DNA from: Bacteroidaceae bacterium | GTDB lineage: Bacteria; Bacteroidota; Bacteroidia; Bacteroidales; Bacteroidaceae | Assembly (NCBI GenBank): GCA_045594385.1 | Contig: JAZNYM010000032.1 | Location: 8,339-72,338 of the forward strand | DNA: 64,000 nucleotides | Reading direction: 5' to 3' | Shown: piece after piece, positions 7,157 through 63,848 of the stretch | Numbering within the stretch: position 1 is the first letter of the stretch | How the letters are laid out: each line of letters starts with the position of its first letter | The notes under the pieces: generated by a model | What the model saw: only the letters and a program-made list of their open reading frames with translations | The model's database searches: none | Told to the model about the DNA's origin: nothing | Translations under genes and position numbers: made by a program

Positions 7157-7241
7157 ATTTTTCTATCTATAAATCAAGTTTCTTCATTAAAACACAAATA
7201 GCCACCCTTCCATTGCAGGAGGAGTGACTAAATGGATTTTG

Positions 7242-7645
7242 TGGAGCTGGAGGGGATTGAACCCTCGTCCAAACAGGGACATCCCATGCTTTCTACACGC
7301 TTATTCCGGACTTCGGTTGTAGGGAAGCGACAAGACCCGGACCACCAATCGCAACCTTAGCATCAAGAGAATTTCATCACCGAGTAGATGCGTCCTCAAC
7401 GACTATCCCCGAATTGCTGTGCCACTGAGCCTGAGAGTTTCAGGGCGTGAACCTCAGAGTGACATCCCGTCTCAGCACCTGGTGCCGAGATAAAGCCGGT
7501 AATCTACTGTACTTCGATTAGGCAGCGAGAGCGTAGTTCTTTTCGCCAGATAAATTCTTGAAGGTCAGATATTATAGAGAGCGGCCAACAACCCTCTGCG
7601 TGCTTACATGACATCTCATCCTGCTGTCAAATCCATGTCAGCCCC
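7242..7645 (-). ncRNA. ssrA: tmRNA (SsrA), tag reading frame GEKNYALAA-stop at 7518-7547
   Basis: The minus-strand 5' end GGGGCTGACATGGATTTGACAGC pairs with the 3' CAGCTCC-A, including the G3:U wobble. A T-arm GGGTTCAATCCCC is present. The tag ORF ggc gaa aag aac tac gct ctc gct gcc taa is present. CCA is not encoded. Confidence 0.93.
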
Positions 7646-37980: not shown

Positions 37981-39270
37981 CTATATTTCCATTATCAATG
38001 CCTCGTCCTGACTGTAATATCTGTATTGGCGCAAACGCTTCCATTCAGGATTATGCAGCATCCATGCTGGAGAGAAGTTCTCCGTCCCCCTGGAGTCAAG
38101 TCTATCCACTACCATACGCACCGTAAGACGATGAATGTCTATGGCCGGTATATAAAGCATTTCCGTACCGGAATTATTGTGCGTGATGGCCAATACACCC
38201 ACACTGACAAGTTCATCCAAGAGCACCGTAACCAAAGTTTCCGGCAAGTGTGTTGCGCGCGAAAGGGAACGCTGGCTCAACGGACGGTTGCCGGCAGCAA
38301 ATCTTTTGGCAACATGACTTACCAGCAAAAGGGAAAGTGTATCGCGGAAACGACGGCTCATGCCACGTGTCGAACGCTCAAATGCATATTCCTGTACCAT
38401 CTGGTTGGCATAACTCAACTGACATCCTATAAGACAGATATACCAAGTGAACTGCAAGAAAATCAAAAGCAAGGGGATTGCGGCAAAAGAACCATAGATG
38501 GCGTTGTATGCCGACAGTTTTATCTGGTAGTGTATGTAGAAAAACTCTAACCCCTGAAACAACAGACCTGCAATAATGCCGGGGCCGACACATGCACTCC
38601 ATCTGACATGCGTGTTTGGCATAAGTTTGTACAACAGGACAAACACCAGACTGCTGATAAAGAACGGCACCATCACCACTATGACATGAAAGGTACTTCC
38701 CATGGAAAAGTATATGTCAAGCCACGACTCCAACGTCAGCATTGCCACATTCACACCATTTGTCAGTATCATCAATATGGGTAACAGCAGGAATACGGAT
38801 ATGTAATCTGTTATCCGTCTGTAGATATTGCGCGTGTTTGTCACTTGCCAAACGGTATTGAAGGCCGTTTCTATATTCATGGTCAGGTTAACCAAAGTAT
38901 AGAACAACAACAATATACCTACGCCCAAGAAGACACCGCTCTTGGTATGCTGAAGATAACTTTCTACAAACGTGAGAACCGTATGGGTCATTTCCGGACT
39001 GAATGAATCCAGTGCGACACGCAGACGACTTTCTATAATGTTGTCAAAGCCAAAGCCCCGGGCAATGGCAAAGATAATGGCCAGCACCGGAACAACGGCC
39101 AAGGTGGTATTGTATGTAAGTGCCGAGGCATAAGAACTGAGATTATTGTTGACAAAGTGATCTATGGTGATATAGACACGTTTGAAGAGCAGCAATGCCC
39201 AACGCTGTAAGCACTTGCACTGCCGTTCATCCATGTTCCACCAGGATTCCATTCTTTCTTCTATTGTCAT
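37981..39270 (-). CDS. YihY/BrkB-family inner-membrane protein with a C-terminal extension
   Basis: SSYASALTYNTTLAVVPVLAIIFAI is the YihY signature region. The start is moved to ATG 39270 because the longer ORF (to 39336) runs into the RNase P RNA gene. Confidence 0.75.
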   Translation of the reverse strand: MTIEERMESWWNMDERQCKCLQRWALLLFKRVYITIDHFVNNNLSSYASALTYNTTLAVVPVLAIIFAIARGFGFDNIIESRLRVALDSFSPEMTHTVLTFVESYLQHTKSGVFLGVGILLLFYTLVNLTMNIETAFNTVWQVTNTRNIYRRITDYISVFLLLPILMILTNGVNVAMLTLESWLDIYFSMGSTFHVIVVMVPFFISSLVFVLLYKLMPNTHVRWSACVGPGIIAGLLFQGLEFFYIHYQIKLSAYNAIYGSFAAIPLLLIFLQFTWYICLIGCQLSYANQMVQEYAFERSTRGMSRRFRDTLSLLLVSHVAKRFAAGNRPLSQRSLSRATHLPETLVTVLLDELVSVGVLAITHNNSGTEMLYIPAIDIHRLTVRMVVDRLDSRGTENFSPAWMLHNPEWKRLRQYRYYSQDEALIMEI

Positions 39271-39304
39271 AAGAGGAAATTCTTTTTTTGGACGAATAAA
39301 AAGA

Positions 39305-39715
39305 AGCAGTGGCCCTGTAAGCCGGGTTCTGTGCACGGATATTTCTGCATCAAGCCTCCATATCCGCCGCCTGTCATTTATCCACTACCGGCGTCACCGC
39401 CAGTCTCTATCGTTCTACCCTCCGGCTCGGACGGACAACCCTCCCACTCCCGCCATTACAGCAGGAGCACCGCCGGTATACGCGAACTTTCAACATCCGG
39501 AGTGCACAGCACGCATGTCGCCACACGCCTGGTGGGCTCTTACTCCACCTTCTCACCCTTGCCTGCAATATATACAGGCGGTTGTTTTCTTCTGCACTGA
39601 CCAACCATCACTGGCTCCTACCCGTTAGGTAGCGGATTGTCCTGTGTTGCCCGGACTTTCCTCTCGTCTCCTCCCAAAAGGAGAAAACCAGCGACAGGCC
39701 GGACCACTGTTTCTT
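39305..39715 (-). ncRNA. rnpB: RNase P RNA (bacterial type A)
   Basis: On the minus strand, GAGAGGAAAGTCCGGGCAAC (P4 5' strand) and ACAGAACCCGGCTTA (P4 3' strand) are present. P1 pairs CAGTGGTCC (39701-39709) with GGGCCACTG (39307-39315). Ends are approximate. Confidence 0.9.
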
Positions 39716-41375: not shown

Positions 41376-41419
41376 GACACCCCGTAAGTACCAGTATCCT
41401 TATGGGGTGTCTCCTTTTT
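41376..41419 (+). terminator. Rho-independent terminator after htrA
   Basis: gacaccccgtaag pairs with cttatggggtgtc (one G-U), followed by tccttttt. Confidence 0.7.
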
Positions 41420-41527: not shown

Positions 41528-41535
41528 TACCTTTG
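41528..41535 (+). promoter_or_regulatory. Candidate -7 box (TACCTTTG)
   Basis: tacctttg at 41528-41535, 26 nt upstream of the ATG at 41561 and just after the htrA terminator. Confidence 0.5.
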
Positions 41536-41560: not shown

Positions 41561-41989
41561 ATGAAGAACAGAGGCAAACTCCTGTGCATAATCCTTACCG
41601 CCTTACTGACCGTCTGCGTCACAGGCATCACGGCCAAGCCCAAACAGACAAAGGTATATATCTTCGGCGTAAGCATCAACCTTACAGATTCAGTCACCTA
41701 CCTGACTGACGTGCAGGTTCTTGAGCCTGCATACATCGAAACCAAGACCGGTTTCCTTTATGACCGCAGCATCTACTCCCAGCAACTGCAAATATGGGTA
41801 GAACATGCAAAGGGGCAGCCCAACACAACTTGCACCGTATTCTTCAGCACCAACAGATCTAAGCTTGAGGAGAAATTCATCAAAGTCCGCAATAAATACA
41901 ACAAGGACCAGTCTACCATCTTGAAGAGCCTTGACGCCGGGGAATTCAAGTTCATACCACAAGAATGGACAGAACATGAAAGACTATAA
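41561..41989 (+). CDS. Secreted hypothetical protein (142 aa)
   Basis: N-terminal signal peptide (MKNRGKLLCIILTALLTVCVTG). It overlaps the next gene by 14 nt. Confidence 0.55.
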   Translation: MKNRGKLLCIILTALLTVCVTGITAKPKQTKVYIFGVSINLTDSVTYLTDVQVLEPAYIETKTGFLYDRSIYSQQLQIWVEHAKGQPNTTCTVFFSTNRSKLEEKFIKVRNKYNKDQSTILKSLDAGEFKFIPQEWTEHERL

Positions 41990-42857
41990 AATCGCCGGGC
42001 ACCGTCTGTCCATAGACTTCTTTGACAACGGTATTAACGAAAAACTGTTGCCCAACCTTGCTCCCTTTGCCTACGACGGTTCCGAACCACCTGCCATCAC
42101 TCTACGCATTGTCACGGACTACGAATGGGCACAGGAAGTGCATGAAGTCGGCACTTTTGACGTAGGTGGCAGCAACTATGGAGTGTTCCGCACCTCCGAC
42201 GGCGGCTACGTGTTTGACATTTACGACACCACCGGACACCTATGCAGCCGCATGCAGTCCAACCCCGATTTCACTCTTTGCCACATCAAGGTATATGACG
42301 GCACCTCTGTACAACAGAATTACGGACTTAACAACAGCATGATGATGGCATATGCATTTGGCACTGCCACCATGGACACGTTGCTGGTTCATTCCAGCGT
42401 CATACGTTGCGACGGCCAAGGCTACCTGATGACAGCACCCAGCGGCACAGGCAAAAGCACACACACACATCTTTGGTACACCAACATTCCCGGATGCGAC
42501 CTGATGAACGATGACAACCCCATCATCAGGATTATGGATGGCAGACCTGTCGTCTTCGGTTCTCCATGGAGTGGCAAAACCCCCTGCTACCGCAACATCG
42601 AGGCACCGATAGGAGGCATAGTTCGCATCAAGCAGCATTCGGAAAACATAATCCGGCGCCTGTCTCCAATAGAAGCGTTTACAGTACTGTTACCAGCCTG
42701 CAGCAACATGAAATGGGATGCACGCATATACAACGGCATCTGCGACAGCATCACAAAAGTCATACAGACCTGCAAGATCTGGGAACTTCAATGTCTACCG
42801 AACGATGAAGCGGCCATAATCTGTCATGACACAATCTGTAAAGAAAGCAATACTTGA
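41976..42857 (+). CDS. HPr-kinase-like P-loop protein (HprK-related kinase)
   Basis: LLVHSSVIRCDGQGYLMTAPSGTGKSTHT...DLMNDDNPII resembles the HprK C-terminal catalytic core (GxSGxGKS followed by DD). Start taken at MKDYK (41976). Confidence 0.6.
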   Translation: MKDYKIAGHRLSIDFFDNGINEKLLPNLAPFAYDGSEPPAITLRIVTDYEWAQEVHEVGTFDVGGSNYGVFRTSDGGYVFDIYDTTGHLCSRMQSNPDFTLCHIKVYDGTSVQQNYGLNNSMMMAYAFGTATMDTLLVHSSVIRCDGQGYLMTAPSGTGKSTHTHLWYTNIPGCDLMNDDNPIIRIMDGRPVVFGSPWSGKTPCYRNIEAPIGGIVRIKQHSENIIRRLSPIEAFTVLLPACSNMKWDARIYNGICDSITKVIQTCKIWELQCLPNDEAAIICHDTICKESNT

Positions 42858-43386
42858 AGGGCTTAGACTACTGCTCTTTCCCATAAGGAGTTTCTACCGG
42901 AAAAGAAATGGTACCGCCACTCCCATGCCACGCATGGAGATTCCTAACGATATCCTTCTCGGTTCAGCAAGGGATGCGATACGGGAGGGTTACACGGCCA
43001 CGATAACAGTAAAAGGCTGGAGCATGCGCCCCTTTCTGGAACATCAACGTGACAAGGTGATACTGGACACACCAAAATGTGCAAAAGTAGGAGATGCCGT
43101 TTTGGCTGAAATACTGCCGGGGAAGTATGTCTTGCACAGGATTATAGAGATAATCCCACATGCCACAAACGAAGGGTTGGACAAAATAACATTGATGGGT
43201 GACGGAAACATCCAAGGCACAGAACAATGCCTGCGCAAGGATGTATGTGGAATTGTAACCCATTACATACGCCCCGGCAGGACAATCCCCTCCAACGACC
43301 CGAAACTTATCGGAAGAATCAGACTTTGGAAGAAATTGCTACCTTTCAGAAGATTTCTGCTCTTAATCTACAAATCAATAATATAA
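42826..43386 (+). CDS. S24/S26-family (signal-peptidase-like) serine peptidase
   Basis: GWSMRPFL motif (Ser nucleophile context) and a downstream Lys-containing block. The tail is hydrophobic and basic. The start is uncertain (42826 overlaps the upstream gene; alternative 42925). Confidence 0.55.
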   Translation: MTQSVKKAILEGLRLLLFPIRSFYRKRNGTATPMPRMEIPNDILLGSARDAIREGYTATITVKGWSMRPFLEHQRDKVILDTPKCAKVGDAVLAEILPGKYVLHRIIEIIPHATNEGLDKITLMGDGNIQGTEQCLRKDVCGIVTHYIRPGRTIPSNDPKLIGRIRLWKKLLPFRRFLLLIYKSII

Positions 43387-43398
43387 ACCTATAGAAAT

Positions 43399-43665
43399 AT
43401 GAAAATAAAGGAAGGTTTTGAACTTCGCGAAATATGCGGAGAGTATATAGTTGTAGCACATGGAGACCGCAACATCGACTTCTCCAATGTGATATGCCTC
43501 AACGAGTCGTCTGCACTGATGTGGAAGACTGCAGTGACCAAGGACTTTACACATGAGGACCTTTGTGCTGTCCTGATGGACACATACGAAGTGGAAGAGG
43601 ATATCGCCAAGAATGATGTCACCCGCATCGTAGAGGAATGGAAAAACATGGGTATTATAGAATAA
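43399..43665 (+). CDS. PqqD-family protein, a candidate RiPP recognition element (RRE)
   Basis: 88 aa. The pattern ...GEYIVVA....NIDFSNVICLNESSALMWK......T.EDLCAVLMDTYEV....A.NDV...VEEW...GII is typical of PqqD/RRE winged-helix proteins. Confidence 0.7.
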   Translation: MKIKEGFELREICGEYIVVAHGDRNIDFSNVICLNESSALMWKTAVTKDFTHEDLCAVLMDTYEVEEDIAKNDVTRIVEEWKNMGIIE

Positions 43666-43676
43666 CATCTACGATT

Positions 43677-44345
43677 ATGGAGCAAATATGGCAAGACATA
43701 GCAGAATGGATCAACCTTCTTGCACAGACATTGCGCATCCCCACATCATTTCTGCTCATAGAGTTCATCGGTACCTTTGCATTTGCCCTGTCGGGCATAC
43801 GACTGGCCAGTGCCAAGCAGTTTGACGTCTTCGGCGCATGGATAGTGGGCATGGCCACAGCCATCGGCGGAGGAACGTTCCGCGATGTCATGCTGGGCGT
43901 CAATCCATTCTGGATGACCAATGAAATCTATTTCATCTGGTGTGCACTTGCCGTCCTGTTCGTACACATCTTTGCCAAATACCTTGTAAAGCAGAAGAAC
44001 ACATGGTTCATCTTCGACACCATCGGTCTTGCACTCTTCAACGTGGTCGGCATCGAGAAGACCCTGCAGATGGGGTTCCCCTTATGGACCGCCATCACCA
44101 TGGGTTCCGTTACCGGTGCTGCCGGCGGCGTCATCCGTGATGTCCTCATAAACGAAGTGCCCCTCATATTCCGCAAGGAAATATATGCCCTTGCATGTGT
44201 GGCAGGCGGCATCGTTTACTCCATACTGCACACCATGGAGTATGATCCCAACATCAGCGCATTGTTCTCCAGCATAGTTGTCATAGCCGTTAGATGCTTT
44301 GCTGTAAAGTTCCACTGGCACCTGCCCATCGTAAAAGGAGAATAG
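43677..44345 (+). CDS. Trimeric intracellular cation channel (TRIC/UPF0126, YadS-like) membrane protein
   Basis: Two internal repeats carry the glycine motifs (TAIGGGTFRDVMLG and GAAGGVIRDVLINE). Start at MEQIW (43677). Confidence 0.8.
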   Translation: MEQIWQDIAEWINLLAQTLRIPTSFLLIEFIGTFAFALSGIRLASAKQFDVFGAWIVGMATAIGGGTFRDVMLGVNPFWMTNEIYFIWCALAVLFVHIFAKYLVKQKNTWFIFDTIGLALFNVVGIEKTLQMGFPLWTAITMGSVTGAAGGVIRDVLINEVPLIFRKEIYALACVAGGIVYSILHTMEYDPNISALFSSIVVIAVRCFAVKFHWHLPIVKGE

Positions 44346-44356
44346 GCTTCTGTATC

Positions 44357-45583
44357 ATGAAACGTACGCTCCTCATACTTGCCACATTGCTGCTGACCGT
44401 TCTGGCACATGCTCAGCACATGGTATATGACACGAATGTACGTACACTGCAAGTCACCCTTAACGACAATCCGCTCCTGCCTCCAGTACTCAAACTTGGC
44501 AAGTCCTCGTTCCTGAGAATTTCATGGGACGAGATGTCGCACGACTACCACCGCTATGTCTACCGCATACAGCACTGCACACGAGACTGGGAACCTACCG
44601 AAGACCTGTTTGAAAGTGACTATCTCCACGGCACCAACGGTCTGCCTGTGGAGGATTACGAAACAAGCTTCAACACCACACAACTCTACACACACTACTC
44701 CCTCACATTCCCCAACAGGGATGCATCGGTCCTGCTCAGCGGCAACTACAAGCTGCTGGTATACGAAGAGGATTTCATGGACAACGGCCCTATAATCGAA
44801 GTGCGTTTCCATGTTGTAGAGGCCGAAATGGGATTGACCATGCAGGTTTCCTCCAATACGGACATCGATTTCAACGACAAGCACCAGCAGGTATCACTGA
44901 ATCTGACCTATGGCGGCATCAAGGTTACCGACCCGTACAACCAGATTCATGCCGTAGTAAGCCAGAACCGCCGTCCCTCGCGTACAGTCACTGGCATACG
45001 CCCCGACATAAACAAGGCCAATGGCCTGGAATGGCAACATTGCGAAAAACTTATCTTTCCTGCCGGAAACGAGTATCACAAGTTCGAAATCCTTGACGTG
45101 AATCATTCCGGCATGAATGTAGACCACATGCGATGGTTCGAACCCTACTACCATGCCACTCTGTGGATGGACGAGGTTCCGCACAGCTACCTTACTTCAG
45201 AGGACAGAAACGGTGCCTTCTATCCAAGAACAGATGATCAGGAGAGCAACGACACACAGTCGGAATACGTAGTCGTACATTTCTCGCTGCAATCTCCACG
45301 CCTGCCCCAACAGGTCTACGTGAACGGCAAGTGGAGCAACGGTGAAACATCGCCCGACTGCATCATGGAATACAACGACAACTACGAATGCTACGAAGCC
45401 TCCATACTGCTGAAACAAGGTTACTACGACTATCAATACATCACGGCAGACGGATCCACACTTGAAACCATGAACGACTTCTGGCAGACAGAAAACGAAT
45501 ATCAGACTTTTATCTACTACAAAGAGATTGGAGGACGTTATGACAAAATAGTCGCATACAACCGCGTCAATACTAGGTTCTGA
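44357..45583 (+). CDS. T9SS plug-protein-domain (DUF5103) protein
   Basis: Signal peptide present. YRIQHCTRDWEPT....SDYLHG......DYETSFNTTQLYTHYSLTFPN.....LSGNYKLLVYEED matches my recollection of the DUF5103/T9SS plug family signature. Confidence 0.65.
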   Translation: MKRTLLILATLLLTVLAHAQHMVYDTNVRTLQVTLNDNPLLPPVLKLGKSSFLRISWDEMSHDYHRYVYRIQHCTRDWEPTEDLFESDYLHGTNGLPVEDYETSFNTTQLYTHYSLTFPNRDASVLLSGNYKLLVYEEDFMDNGPIIEVRFHVVEAEMGLTMQVSSNTDIDFNDKHQQVSLNLTYGGIKVTDPYNQIHAVVSQNRRPSRTVTGIRPDINKANGLEWQHCEKLIFPAGNEYHKFEILDVNHSGMNVDHMRWFEPYYHATLWMDEVPHSYLTSEDRNGAFYPRTDDQESNDTQSEYVVVHFSLQSPRLPQQVYVNGKWSNGETSPDCIMEYNDNYECYEASILLKQGYYDYQYITADGSTLETMNDFWQTENEYQTFIYYKEIGGRYDKIVAYNRVNTRF

Positions 45584-60819: not shown

Positions 60820-61114
60820 GGTTAAAGTTTCAAGTTTAAGGTTTCAAGTTTCAAGGTTTCAGGTTTCAAGTTTCAAGTTTCTGGTTTAAAGTTTTAGGTT
60901 TCCGCTCATCCGTTCACCGCTCACCGCTCATCCGCTCACCGCTCACCGCTCACCGCTCACCGGTTTCAAGTTTCAAGTTTCTGGTTTAAAGTTTAAGGTT
61001 TCCGCTCATCCGCTCACCACTCATCCGCTCACCGCTCATCCGCTCATCCGCTCATCCGCTCATCCGCTCACCGTTTATCGCTCACCGCTCACCGCTCACC
61101 GTTTATCGCTCACC
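60820..61114. repeat. Composite 7-bp arrays in duplicate: (GTTTCAA) then (GCTCACC/GCTCATC), twice
   Basis: GTTTCAA-type at 60824-60900 and 60962-61000. GCTCACC-type at 60901-60961 and 61001-61114. It covers the last 6 codons and the stop of the S24 gene. Confidence 0.9.
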
Positions 61115-61929
61115 GCCTGTGCAATTTTTACGTACTCCTCGAAGCGTATTCCTGTCACGGGGGCATTGTTTATATTCCATTGGTTTACAGGCCTGCAAAA
61201 GCTGCCAACAGCCATGCGCCTCATGGCATCCACCGTCGGTAGGCTGGGATGCTCCGGAACAGCTCTGGCAACCATGTCCACAAAGGTGGCGTACATCTCC
61301 GACTCACACAGTCCCATGTCCACCAATGCCCTGTACACGGCATACCAATGACGTGAATTGCGTACCATGGGAGCCGCCTTGCATATCAGCGGACCGGGAT
61401 CGTCCATGGGTTTGTCTTCTGGCGTTTCAGCAGCCTTAAGCACCCGCATTATACTGGCATGGCTATAGCGTGGAGCATCCTTTGTCACTTTCACCACCTT
61501 TCCCACTATCCTCACGTCCATGTCTTCCGTCAGCCTGATTGGTTTGTAGGCTTCGTTGGCCGGCACCAGCCAGCATTGTCCGTTCTCATCGCGGAAGAAA
61601 GCCTTCAGCGTAAACTCTCCGTCTATGGCGGCCACCACTATGTCACCGTCATCTGCACAGGGACCGGATTTTATCTGGAGCTTGTCGCCGGGCATGATGC
61701 CTATGTCCGTCATCGAGTTGCCTGTCACGTCCACGCTGAAAGTGATTCCCAGATTCAGGAAACTCTTGGACAAGAACAAACATTCATCCCTTGGAATATC
61801 TCCGCACACGGTGGGAGTGCCGGCCCTCACGGCCTGGTTCATGTCTGGAACGGGTATATTGCAGAGTTCGGGGTTAATCACATCGCCCTGCATCTCTCCC
61901 AGTATTTCCTTCAGTTCTTCGTCTGTCAT
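61096..61929 (-). CDS. UmuD/LexA-type S24 self-cleaving peptidase domain fused to an unrecognised C-terminal domain
   Basis: A RAG/TP candidate Ala-Gly cleavage site, a GNSM Ser nucleophile, a Lys in FTLKAF, and GDIVVAAIDGEFTLK. The start is set to MTDEEL (61929) because upstream codons are repeat-derived. Confidence 0.7.
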   Translation of the reverse strand: MTDEELKEILGEMQGDVINPELCNIPVPDMNQAVRAGTPTVCGDIPRDECLFLSKSFLNLGITFSVDVTGNSMTDIGIMPGDKLQIKSGPCADDGDIVVAAIDGEFTLKAFFRDENGQCWLVPANEAYKPIRLTEDMDVRIVGKVVKVTKDAPRYSHASIMRVLKAAETPEDKPMDDPGPLICKAAPMVRNSRHWYAVYRALVDMGLCESEMYATFVDMVARAVPEHPSLPTVDAMRRMAVGSFCRPVNQWNINNAPVTGIRFEEYVKIAQAVSDKR

Positions 61930-61933
61930 GGTA

Positions 61934-62024
61934 ATCGGGTTTCGGGTTTGAGGTTTCAAGTTTCAAGTTTAAGGTTTTAGGTTTCAGGTTTCAAGTTTCA
62001 GGCTTCAGGTTTCAGGTTTCAGGT
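61934..62024. repeat. GTTTCAN 7-bp array filling the S24/four-helix-bundle intergenic gap
   Basis: tcgggtttcgggtttgaggtttcaagtttcaagtttaaggttttaggtttcaggtttcaagtttcaggcttcaggtttcaggtttcagg. It supplies the TGA stop of the four-helix-bundle gene. Confidence 0.9.
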
Positions 62025-62406
62025 ATTTGGAGCCGGTAATGGAGCTCTTCTTTAAGCTTTTTATAAAAGCTGCAATTGCGCTGCTCAGTTCCAGACATAC
62101 GTTATACAATCTCTTTGCATCCGTGTTATTGAGGAAATTTGTATCTGATGCTCTGATAATTTGCGAGCGGACTTCCCCACACGAACCTTTTGCCACATAA
62201 AGAAACTGTATAAACTCCTTGTTCCCGTCTCGCTCAAACCCTTCTGCGATATTATCCATGACACTTCCTGCAGCTGCACGAATCTGTTGTACGAACCGCG
62301 TGTCCGTTTTCCATGGTTGGGTTTCGGTATGAAGATAAACTTCCTGACACAACTCCCTTGCCATCTGCCAAATCCGTAATTCCTCAAATCTTTCAACCAC
62401 TGCCAT
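62005..62406 (-). CDS. Four-helix-bundle protein (23S rRNA intervening-sequence protein / Avd-like family)
   Basis: F.ELRIWQ.AREL...VY......P.......QIR.AA.SV..NIAEGF.R....EF..FL..A.GS..EV..Q is the family signature (TIGR02436-type, from memory). 133 aa. Confidence 0.85.
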   Translation of the reverse strand: MAVVERFEELRIWQMARELCQEVYLHTETQPWKTDTRFVQQIRAAAGSVMDNIAEGFERDGNKEFIQFLYVAKGSCGEVRSQIIRASDTNFLNNTDAKRLYNVCLELSSAIAAFIKSLKKSSITGSKYLKPET

Positions 62407-62424
62407 AGTTTTGTTATTAGATTA

Positions 62425-62632
62425 GTTTAAGGTTTCTGGTTTCAAGTTTCAAGTTTCTGGTTTCAAGTTTCTGGTTTCAAGTTTCTGGTATGCCTCTTGC
62501 TCTGTTATCATGAGATGCCCTTACGCTCCTTGGCTTCTTGAAACTTGAAACTTGAAACATGAAACCTATAATTTGTACTTCCTTGACTTCTTGAAACATG
62601 AAACTTGAAACTTGAAACTTGAAACATGAAAC
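62425..62632. repeat. Inverted 7-bp arrays: left arm (GTTTCAA/GTTTCTG), right arm (TTGAAAC/ATGAAAC) duplicated
   Basis: Left arm 62425-62489. Right arms 62536-62566 and 62589-62632, each preceded by a cttccttgrcttc-like motif. Confidence 0.85.
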
Positions 62633-62725
62633 TAGAGCCTCCACGCTCCTTTTCTCCCCGCAAATTTACTTTTTTTATTCCACATCACCAAAATTTTGGG
62701 ACATCTTGTAGTAAAACGGCAATTC

Positions 62726-63040: not shown

Positions 63041-63060
63041 GAGGACAAGAAGCACCCCTC

Positions 63061-63625
63061 AATAGGAAGGTTTAAAGTTTAAAGTTTCAGGTTTCAGGTT
63101 TCTCGCTACTTTGTCCCTCTGAGACAGGGGGACGAGGAACAAAGTTCCGGAGGGGGTATGATAAGTACTGCTGTCAGGCTTCATCGTTCATCGTTCTTTT
63201 ACAGACCCCTCAGCCCTTCGGGCACCTCGCCCTAACTTAGGGGAGGAAAGGGGGAGGGGGGGGCAAGTTTCAGGTTTAAGGTATCCGCTCAGCACTTCCC
63301 GGTTTAAGGTTTCAGGTTTCAAGTTTCAAGTTTAAGGTATCCGCTCAGCGCTTCCCGGTTTAAGGTTTCAGGTTTCAAGTTTCAAGTTTAAGGTATCCGC
63401 TCAGCGCTTCCAAGTTTAAGGTTTCAAGTTCGCTAAGGCCTTAAACCCGAAACATGAAACATGAAACTCCAAACCTGAAACATGAAACCTGAAACATGAA
63501 ACCTGAAACTCCAAACCCGAAACATGAAACTTGAAACATGAAACTTGAAACTCCAAACTCTAAACCCGAAACTTGAAACCTGAAACCTGAAACTTTAAAC
63601 CTGAAACTTTAAACTCCAAACCCGA
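63061..63625. repeat. Large composite: GTTTMAR arrays, hairpin module, G-rich tract, 56-bp tandem repeat x about 2.7, then an inverted (nTGAAAC) arm
   Basis: gtccctctgagacagggggac occurs near 63106-63130. gtatccgctcagc recurs at 63281, 63337 and 63393 (56-bp spacing). The symmetry centre AAGGCCTT is at 63435-63442. The GAAAC-type arm runs 63443-63625. Confidence 0.85.
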
Positions 63626-63660
63626 AACAAAACCGCCGAGGTTTTTCGAACCCCGGCGGC
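63625..63660 (-). terminator. Rho-independent terminator of the small-peptide gene
   Basis: On the minus strand, gccgccgggg ttcgaaaaa cctcggcgg is followed by ttttgtttcgggttt. Confidence 0.65.
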
Positions 63661-63668
63661 TTGATATA

Positions 63669-63848
63669 TTACCATTCGCTGTCCCAGATGCCGGGAGCAG
63701 AAGGACCATTGTCCTCACGGCCAAGTTGGACATCAGCGACTGAAGTGTCAACTGTCTCTTCATTGATGCCCAAACTTGCTGCCAGCATGTTTACGGCACT
63801 TACCTTTATTGTCTCCACTGAGGGAGTGATATATGTCTTCTTGTTCAT
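63669..63848 (-). CDS. Small protein (59 aa) missed by the 60-aa ORF cutoff: MNKKTYITPSVETIKVSAVNMLAASLGINEETVDTSVADVQLGREDNGPSAPGIWDSEW
   Basis: Hand-translated from the ATG at 63848 to the TAA at 63669-63671. It has its own terminator. The N-terminal pattern MxKKxYxxPxxExxxV...MLAAS resembles small Bacteroidales peptides I have seen annotated as hypothetical. Confidence 0.5.
   Translation of the reverse strand: MNKKTYITPSVETIKVSAVNMLAASLGINEETVDTSVADVQLGREDNGPSAPGIWDSEW

Follow-up and report, generated by a model that had tools for sequence, protein, structure and literature searches.

Linear polyphosphorylated peptides (LPPs) were described by Popov et al. (Nat Commun, May 2026; PMC13381572). 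Their biosynthetic core comprises the SipW-like archaeal-type peptidase LppS, the discrete RRE (RiPP recognition element; RiPPs are peptides made on the ribosome and modified after translation) LppB, the HprK-like LppK, the NTP-transferase LppN, the MsbA-like exporter LppD and the precursor LppA (PMC13381572). LppA precursors have 35-200 aa, a leader of the form YxxPxVLxHQxIxFETxxS and variable C-termini (PMC13381572). The reference cluster of Paenibacillus alginolyticus is ordered lppA-K-B-S-D-N, and LPP clusters often lie inside capsular polysaccharide loci (PMC13381572). LppK places several phosphates on core Ser3, and LppB holds the Pro kink and the Tyr hydroxyl of the leader by means of N33 and D70. 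LppS, which requires LppB, cuts after Thr-1 and is inactivated by S29A, H68A and D93A (PMC13381572). According to the authors LPPs are restricted to Bacillota, with a patchy, transfer-driven distribution in Bacilli, and neither the final product nor its biological role is known (PMC13381572). Here, we analyze a four-gene cassette in a stretch of 64,000 nucleotides from a Bacteroidaceae bacterium (contig JAZNYM010000032.1; hereafter the window). Its kinase, peptidase and RRE genes probably represent a Bacteroidales relative of the LPP maturation machinery.

HprK-like kinases also occur in paeninodin-type lasso peptide clusters, which further contain a B1 RRE, a B2 protease, a C cyclase, a D exporter and an NTP-transferase. 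SynChlorMet (SCM) systems, which include radical SAM/SPASM enzymes, and the pairs of HprK-related kinase A and PqqD are bioinformatic definitions only. Literature searches on PqqD, HPr kinase and Bacteroid and on ScmC returned nothing relevant, and this gene set is mentioned neither in RRE-Finder nor in a 2025 RRE survey.

The cassette consists of four tightly packed open reading frames (ORFs) on the + strand (41561-43665; Table 1), as found by ORF calling and by direct reading of the sequence. ORFs 1 and 2 overlap by 14 nt and ORFs 2 and 3 by 32 nt, and a gap of 12 nt separates ORFs 3 and 4. They code for a secreted protein, a P-loop kinase, a serine peptidase and an RRE. An earlier interpretation made from the letters alone (the sequence-only reading) had listed the same ORFs, overlaps and gap as well as the motifs APSGTGKST and MNDDNP in protein 2 and GWSMRPFL in protein 3, all of which we recovered. 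It had further proposed a module for peptide recognition, phosphorylation and cleavage, and our analyses support this proposal, the chemistry being predicted from homology.

The 88-aa protein matches PF05402 (PqqD) with 41.9 bits at a cutoff of 23.4 and covers the full model. A search of the PDB with the RRE profile ranked TfuB1 first (6jx3_B; E 5e-7), followed by TbiB1, LppB (9x8z_B) and PbaB1 (9x90_B), and placed PqqD (3g2b) last. The assignment to PqqD made earlier is thus confirmed, with lasso B1 proteins as the closest solved relatives. Just five positions are invariant in the Bacteroidales RRE family and two of them, N35 and D73, align with N33 and D70 of LppB, both in the profile alignment and in the profile match to 9x8z_B, where the offset is a constant 18. 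The window RRE is hence of the discrete PqqD type with equivalents of Asn33 and Asp70 that is found in LPP systems. A discrete B1-type RRE with TfuB1 as its best PDB match, an HprK-like kinase, an exporter and NTP_transf_5 in sister loci and an expected leader of the [Y/W]xxP type are also features in common with lasso clusters of the paeninodin type. In contrast to these clusters, the cassette has no macrolactam cyclase and no transglutaminase-type B2 protease, neither of which recurs near it in related loci, and the role of leader peptidase would be filled by an S26B serine peptidase.

PDB searches with the single protein sequences were uninformative and the kinase profile gave just weak PEPCK/HprK matches, so that structure prediction was needed. 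The AlphaFold model of the kinase is of high quality (predicted local distance difference test, pLDDT, 95.2; predicted template modeling score, pTM, 0.92). The best 50 of its 52 Foldseek matches with E <= 0.001 are all ATP-dependent PEPCK or HPr kinase/phosphorylase. The template modeling (TM) score against PEPCK is about 0.5 with both domains matched, and the similarity to HPr kinase/phosphorylase covers the catalytic domains. H139, S141, SGTGKS (156-161), NDD (178-180) and PWSGK (197-201) are invariant in an alignment of 28 sequences. The only family matches by hidden Markov models (HMMs) are sub-threshold: TIGR04352 (HprK_rel_A) reaches 25.7 bits at a cutoff of 200 and covers profile positions 60-148 only, and TIGR04249 (ScmC) reaches 20.7 bits at a cutoff of 125. 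The equivalog level of HprK-related kinase A or ScmC is therefore not attained. Homologs of the kinase bear the precomputed Pfam tag PF27840 ‘ScmC’. An HprK-like protein had been suggested from the sequence, and this holds by fold together with the sub-threshold family matches. The accompanying remark that TIGRFAMs defines pairs of HprK-related kinases and PqqD proteins was apt, as these two families are the only ones that the kinase matches. They are also the families that define the kinase of LPP systems, and the likeness to LppK consists of these families and the HprK-type fold. SCM systems resemble the cassette in the same two family matches and the PqqD-like partner. Unlike in SCM, the scores are far below the cutoffs and no radical SAM/SPASM partner is present in the scanned window ORFs or in the conserved neighborhood. 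The kinase gene has an alternative TTG start at 41931, and close homologs have 293 or 307 aa. Two unusual family members, P0251 (656 aa), called as a fusion with a TruB pseudouridine synthase, and P0219 (481 aa), with a long N-terminal extension without family match, may be gene-calling read-throughs instead of real fusions.

The peptidase gives sub-threshold matches to PF00717 (Peptidase_S24; 15.2 bits) and to TIGR02228 (archaeal-type signal peptidase I; 18.5 bits at a cutoff of 51.85), the latter being its best NCBIfam match. Among 28 diverse members, Ser66 (G-x-S-M-R-P), His104 (L-H-R), Asp126 (G-D-G-N) and Glu133 are invariant and no Lys is. Thus, the pattern is that of the S26B peptidases of the endoplasmic reticulum (ER) and archaea and not the Ser/Lys dyad of LexA-type S24 proteins. 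The model (pLDDT 82.3) was built from a shallow alignment with members at least 56% identical to the query. In Foldseek it matches human SEC11C and SEC11A best, followed by UmuD', LexA, lambda cI, SpsB and SipA. Of the earlier assignment to S24/S26, the fold was retained, whereas the protein belongs to S26B (ER/archaeal/SipW) and not to LexA-type S24. A true LexA/UmuD-type S24 protein, which contrasts with the S26B-like protein of the cassette, is encoded elsewhere in the window (Table 1).

A helix of residues 41-53 precedes Ser66 in the peptidase model and an amphipathic helical hairpin forms the C-terminus. The model shows amphipathic helices only, and the hydrophobic transmembrane helix that anchors housekeeping S26 enzymes is missing. 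Hence the cassette peptidase, predicted to be cytoplasmic and partnered by an RRE, differs from SipW and SEC11, with which it shares the fold and the conserved Ser and His catalytic boxes, SEC11C and SEC11A being its best structural matches. Natural fusions of kinase and peptidase with the peptidase domain at the C-terminus (P0127, P0168, P0192, P0205 and others) link the two enzymes and indicate a cytoplasmic location of the peptidase domain. These observations bear on the idea that the peptidase is a SipW-like membrane signal peptidase dedicated to maturing the upstream secreted protein in the periplasm. SipW, a dedicated signal peptidase for specific cargo, sets a precedent (cited in PMC13381572), the fold and the Ser/His motifs are of the S26B type, and the neighboring gene codes for a signal-peptide protein with an A-x-A-like site. 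However, the model has no membrane anchor, the domain is found fused to a cytoplasmic P-loop kinase, and the RRE partner is cytoplasmic, as it is for LppS, which cleaves only with LppB (PMC13381572). We regard a periplasmic signal peptidase as highly improbable.

The window proteins were compared directly with LPP sequences (Supplementary Data 1 of PMC13381572). Over all 88 residues, the RRE is 36-41% identical to members of sequence similarity network (SSN) cluster 4 (Dehalobacter, Anaerocolumna), which score 70-83 bits with the family HMM. The values are 32% and 61 bits for SSN cluster 9, 26% and 39 bits for SSN cluster 8, and 27% over 55 aa and 13-32 bits for LPP cluster 1. The peptidase follows with 27-30% identity over ~145 residues and 86-89 bits for SSN cluster 4, 29% and 83 bits for cluster 9, 24% and 43 bits for cluster 8, and 22-29% and 21-38 bits for LPP cluster 1. 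In the profile alignment, S29, H68 and D87 of LppS map onto Ser66, His104 and Asp126. Judged from these sequences, the cassette is homologous to the SpI (signal peptidase I)-RRE-kinase systems of Popov et al. and falls in a branch that the authors left uncharacterized and in a phylum outside their study (PMC13381572). Moreover, the domain families of the LPP core (TIGR04249/TIGR04352, TIGR02228, PqqD, NTP_transf_5 and TIGR02203; Supplementary Data 2 of PMC13381572) are those matched by the window proteins together with genes of sister loci. The sequence-only reading had placed the module outside the described RiPP classes; this does not hold, since an HprK-like kinase, an archaeal-type signal peptidase and a discrete RRE are the defining LPP core (PMC13381572).

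The likeness to LPP systems extends from the three protein families to the conserved equivalents of the peptidase Ser, His and Asp87 and of Asn33 and Asp70 in the RRE. It further includes NTP_transf_5 and MsbA-like exporter genes in sister Bacteroidales loci, the position of the window cassette among polysaccharide genes, and candidate peptides that begin with an LppA-like KKTYIxPxV. In contrast, the host here belongs to Bacteroidota and not Bacillota, the gene order is K-S-B instead of K-B-S, and an additional conserved secreted protein comes first. The window cassette is without adjacent precursor, exporter and NTP-transferase genes. Its position is stable and vertically conserved, whereas LPP clusters are patchy and transfer-driven.

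Starting from these folds, conserved residues, homologies and the genetic coupling of the genes, a chemistry, an order of steps and a type of substrate may be proposed. As suggested by its homology with LppB, the 88-aa RRE would bind a ribosomal peptide by its [Y]xxP leader, which would join the RRE as an extra beta-strand. The PEPCK/HprK-fold kinase would then, following LppK, its homolog, transfer phosphate from ATP to a Ser close to where leader and core meet. Finally, the RRE would present the end of the leader to the cytoplasmic SipW/SEC11-type peptidase, which, like the homologous LppS, would remove it. We consider leader capture, Ser phosphorylation and leader removal by a relative of the LPP machinery to be the probable function of the cassette.

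The label ‘orphan’, given to the cassette at first reading, does not apply, as the cassette is no isolated case. In a database clustered at 90% identity, the kinase-like family has 7,947 or more matches, and clustering at 50% identity leaves at least 7,234 representatives (E <= 0.001). The cassette locus is found in at least 594 GTDB species genomes, the best 80 of these loci belonging to Prevotella, Paraprevotella, Alloprevotella, Hoylesella, Hallella, Palleniella, Muribaculaceae and Alistipes. In 89 related loci (L numbers below), the ORFs of which were searched with iterated HMMs, the kinase gene was found 89 times, the peptidase gene 88 times, the RRE gene 83 times and the secreted-protein gene 78 times. 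The order secreted protein, kinase, peptidase, RRE is kept in ~75 loci from many genera, which bears out the synteny expected across Bacteroidales and recurs beyond chance. Compared with the locus L094 and with the LPP core, the window has no precursor, NTP_transf_5 or ABC (ATP-binding cassette) exporter gene, as one would expect if an ancestral lasso or LPP cluster had lost its precursor, exporter and tailoring genes and were left as a decaying, non-functional remnant. Yet the active-site and ligand-binding residues are invariant among cassette proteins that are 32-79% identical, a pattern of purifying selection, and the ORFs are intact, with their order maintained in many genera and with thousands of homologs. 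There is very little chance that the cassette is such a remnant.

The sequence-only reading had also noted the absence of an adjacent precursor, a lasso cyclase, a radical SAM enzyme and an exporter, and this was borne out. A scan of the neighboring genes and of the ten largest other window ORFs detected neither a lasso cyclase nor a B2 protease, a radical SAM enzyme or an ABC exporter, some mid-sized capsule ORFs at 12-23 kb being unscanned. Likewise, NTP_transf_5 (LppN) is absent from the cassette and the scanned window ORFs, and an MsbA-like exporter (LppD) from the scanned window ORFs. A radical SAM gene near the divergent relative L095 was rejected as a cassette partner as it codes for an anaerobic sulfatase maturase. 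In lineages without the secreted protein, the cassette is followed by an MsbA-like ABC exporter gene and/or an NTP_transf_5 gene. The exporter gene is adjacent in L084, L085, L087, L089, L094 and L095. NTP_transf_5 directly follows the cassette in L082 and L094 and lies nearby in L089; the complete order in L094 is kinase, peptidase, RRE, NTP_transf_5, ABC. The peptidase gene is divergent from the kinase gene in L084, L085 and L095.

The 142-aa protein has an SPase-I-type (type I signal peptidase) signal peptide, as noted at first reading, and a conserved core of ~110 aa according to the family alignment. Y33, G36, D43, L66, R69, Y72, Q75, Y113 and F129 are invariant. The signal peptide is of the ordinary Sec type, weakly conserved and with an A-x-A-like site, and relatives in other species carry a variable Lys-rich tail. 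Searches of Pfam, NCBIfam and PDB gave no relative, and the protein is labeled hypothetical in every source. The module had been thought possibly to act on this protein. As substrate or product of the cassette, it would first bind to the RRE, undergo phosphorylation or trimming in the cytoplasm and leave the cell through Sec, which would explain why there is no ABC exporter. The gene comes first, is translationally coupled to the kinase gene by the 14-nt overlap and, as said, occurs in 78 of 89 loci. Furthermore, the secreted-protein gene and an adjacent exporter are mutually exclusive, all 7 of 7 exporter-type loci in the sample lacking the former, and LPP precursors reach 200 aa with variable C-termini (PMC13381572), which the variable Lys-rich tails recall. 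However, mutual exclusion may merely mirror two phylogenetic clades, and the trio occurs with neither the secreted-protein gene nor an exporter in L061, L068, L070 and L083. The family alignment shows no conserved [Y/W]xxP leader motif, whereas the Asn and Asp with which this motif is read are retained in the RRE, and canonical RRE capture of the 142-aa protein is therefore unlikely. Nor does the build of the protein, a conserved globular core behind an ordinary Sec signal peptide, resemble a leader-core peptide. For these reasons we do not favor the secreted protein as substrate and consider this quite unlikely.

The LPP dataset contains precursors encoded elsewhere in the genome (PMC13381572), and trans-encoding is thus no barrier for the LPP-like function that we favor. 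Such a substrate had been suggested in a 59-aa peptide encoded further downstream in the window (Table 1), which begins MNKKTYITPSVETIKVSAVNMLAAS. Its leader supports the suggestion: MNKKTYITPSV is identical to the LppA leader MVKKTYIAPTV in 8 of the first 11 residues, with just the YxxPxV part of the LPP leader consensus present. Its location does not, as the gene is not syntenic with the cassette and its neighbors code for large secreted proteins. As a syntenic cassette partner the peptide was rejected, because a metagenome scan gave three loci, none with cassette genes. Members of the peptide family were found in L015, L017, L082, L097, L098 (two copies) and L099. They share a conserved KKTYIxPE N-terminus, small residues at -3/-1 about 16-20 residues past YxxP, and a Trp-containing C-terminus (mostly WGxxW or WDxEW; RWGFPE in L082). 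In L082, a 44-aa YxxP peptide heads a tight operon, followed after 7 nt by a 379-aa lipoprotein and after a further 20 nt by the kinase, peptidase, RRE and NTP_transf_5 genes. Outside L082, the peptide genes recurrently come after genes for large secreted proteins with a common C-terminal region of ~190 aa. This region matches the type IX secretion system (T9SS) type A sorting domain TIGR04183 with 16.6 and 13.2 bits, below the cutoff of 23, and the assignment of these proteins as T9SS cargo was not retained on such sub-threshold support. Based on the leader sequences, the dispersed YxxP-leader peptide family is the best candidate substrate, although with odds below even. A single core-genome LPP-like set might even mature many trans-encoded YxxP peptides beside large secreted, possibly T9SS-sorted proteins, with a Sec-exported partner replacing the ABC exporter, but we regard this arrangement as doubtful.

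Beside the 59-aa peptide gene, dense arrays of a 7-nt sequence (GAAACNT, complement GTTTCAR) in both orientations form long imperfect inverted repeats around small ORFs. A four-helix-bundle protein of the 23S-rRNA-intervening-sequence type is also encoded in the window (Table 1).

Several observations weigh against an LPP-like function. When ORFs of at least 45 aa were clustered across the loci, no conserved precursor was found beside the cassette, and no conserved precursor-like ORF is present in the gap between the peptidase and pqqD genes, up to 650 nt downstream or up to 700 nt upstream. A short-ORF search of the exporter-type loci gave no conserved adjoining small ORF either. Strict and relaxed [Y/W]xxP scans found no conserved adjacent precursor (6 matches vs 4 on the opposite-strand control), and none with the YxxPxVLxHQxIxFETxxS leader lies beside the cassette. 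Every recurrent small ORF in these hunts is a shadow ORF of a flanking gene. In no lineage does a conserved small ORF, such as the co-varying partner that the sequence-only reading had looked to gene-neighborhood analysis to reveal, adjoin the cassette. The YxxP peptide family occurs within ~5 kb of the cassette in just 3 of ~85 loci, and a frequency of 3 per 1.55 Mb around cassettes does not clearly exceed what chance would give. Regarding the enzymes, the scores of kinase and peptidase with curated HMMs are far under the cutoffs, and the loop with the catalytic Ser (residues 65-67) has a pLDDT below 50 in the peptidase model. The catalytic D93 of LppS aligns with Thr132, the only invariant acidic residues nearby being Glu133 and Asp126, which leaves the acidic triad residue in doubt. 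The window proteins resemble those of the uncharacterized SSN clusters 4 and 9 more closely than those of LPP cluster 1. Finally, the conserved 142-aa secreted protein has no explained role in the cassette, and the stable core-genome position beside htrA and rpoD is unlike that of LPP clusters and could point to a housekeeping role.

In such a housekeeping module, an adaptor would present a terminal segment of a cellular protein to a protease that the kinase controls, and the module might serve, for instance, the physiology of the envelope or of stress. The gene htrA is upstream of the cassette in 43 loci. In ~44 Prevotella-type loci (within L020-L075), rpoD lies directly before the cassette, between htrA and the cassette, an arrangement that is not found in the clade of the window. 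The window region also holds RNase Y, RNase P RNA and tmRNA genes, the latter two indicating a stable housekeeping region and not an island, and the order of the cassette is vertically conserved in the at least 594 species genomes. The absence of an adjacent precursor and of PADLOC defense-model matches for any of the four proteins would also fit. On the other hand, the characterized relatives (LPP and paeninodin-type lasso systems) all act on dedicated ribosomal peptides, and the exporter and NTP-transferase of sister loci are typical of RiPP clusters. Moreover, the flanking genes vary by clade, with DPP-IV in L004 and L007 and MurF in L061 and L070. Hence adjacency to htrA and rpoD reflects lineage synteny and not an obligate link, and we judge a housekeeping module to be unlikely.

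Table 1. Location of features in the window and, where a locus is named, in related loci
Feature	Location	Strand	Evidence or remark
tmRNA	7239-7645	-	Tag peptide GEKNYALAA
Low-GC block	~10000-34000		GC 0.33-0.43 vs ~0.5 elsewhere
BrkB/YihY-family ORF call	37981-39336		GTG start; overlaps RNase P RNA
RNase P RNA	39302-39710	-	216 bits
Terminator-like hairpin 3' of htrA	41377-41419	+	Direct sequence reading
Promoter-like TACCTTTG	41528-41535	+	26 nt 5' of first ATG; direct reading
Secreted protein, cassette gene 1, 142 aa	41561-41989	+	ORF and family alignment
PEPCK/HprK-fold P-loop kinase, ScmC/HprK-related type, LppK-like, 293 aa from ATG	41976-42857	+	
S26B (SipW/SEC11-type) serine peptidase homolog, LppS-like leader peptidase, predicted cytoplasmic, 186 aa	42826-43386	+	
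Discrete PqqD-type RRE, LppB/lasso-B1-like leader-binding adaptor, 88 aa	43399-43665	+	
TRIC-type channel (Gly_transporter/UPF0126)	43677-44345	+	PF03458, 151.8 bits
T9SS plug protein	44357-45583	+	NF052315, 414.5 bits; family PF17116
TRIC/T9SS-plug example, window	43677-45583		
TRIC/T9SS-plug example, L004	9747-11663		
TRIC/T9SS-plug example, L007	9848-11791		
LexA/UmuD-type S24 protein	61096-61959	-	PF00717, 81.7 bits
23S-rRNA-intervening-sequence protein	62005-62406	-	
7-nt arrays	62420-62650, 63060-63650		Both orientations
59-aa peptide, LPP/lasso-type leader N-terminus, candidate trans-encoded substrate	63669-63848	-	
59-aa family member, L015	9603-9770	-	
59-aa family member, L017	7266-7448		
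59-aa family member, L097	4472-4636		
59-aa family members, L098	2981-3145, 10001-10162		
59-aa family member, L099	1190-1366		

The hairpin behind htrA has a 12-bp stem (41377-41388/41399-41410), a loop of 10 nt and a following CTCCTTTTT T-run, and marks the putative upstream limit of the cassette transcription unit. Since the consensus terminator scan allows loops of up to 8 nt, this hairpin was found by eye. The promoter-like element ahead of the first gene, TACCTTTG, fits TAnnTTTG, which we take to be the Bacteroidetes -7 promoter consensus. The consensus scan found no terminator-like site on the + strand ahead of the downstream TRIC, T9SS-plug, flippase and glycosyltransferase genes.

The TRIC gene begins 12 nt after the RRE gene and adjoins the cassette in 24 of 89 loci, all closer relatives of the window. 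The T9SS-plug gene, which pairs with it, is linked to the cassette in the clade of the window only. Both were rejected as core genes because just ~25 of 89 loci have them next to the cassette and because they stay paired, often as a fusion, when apart from it, and the TRIC channel is probably outside the core system. In ~10 related loci TRIC (PF03458) and the T9SS plug (PF17116) form a single fused ORF; examples of the pair are found in the window, L004 and L007 (Table 1) and also in L013-L018 and L021. Away from the cassette, the pair is held together in reversed order in L024, L026, L027 and L035. It is unusual for an inner-membrane channel to be fused to a T9SS plug, which suggests that the two are functionally linked.

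The cassette of the window is flanked by Wza, flippase and glycosyltransferase genes. The low-GC block (Table 1) contains capsule/EPS genes for Wza-like, Wzz, Wzc-like tyrosine kinase and Wzi proteins, glycosyltransferases, as well as the gene for T9SS PorZ, and is probably a variable, horizontally exchanged polysaccharide locus. The long ORF called for the BrkB/YihY-family gene runs into the RNase P RNA, and the gene therefore probably starts at a site downstream of the called one.

The Bacteroidales form is a distinct variant of the LPP-type systems: it occurs in another phylum and another sub-cluster, has no adjacent precursor, exporter or NTP-transferase gene in this lineage, includes an additional secreted protein and shows stable core-genome inheritance. 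It extends a peptide pathway that is guided by an RRE and depends on a signal peptidase to a second major phylum, and SSN clusters 4 and 9 (PMC13381572) gain a large family of relatives. At least 594 Bacteroidales species, among them Prevotella-type bacteria of gut, mouth and rumen, have the kinase-peptidase-RRE core with its gene order conserved. In these species it appears to be vertically inherited and not horizontally shuffled, the adjacent precursor and exporter having been lost or never present. As in Bacilli, the system is linked to polysaccharide loci. Peptides with a KKTYIxP leader are concrete candidate substrates, and if the dispersed peptides are indeed matured by the cassette, bacteria that are abundant in the microbiome would have a RiPP system of uncommon design. 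A single machine would then serve many scattered precursors, and in major bacteria of gut and rumen the system would be connected with the biology of the cell surface, the capsule or the T9SS.

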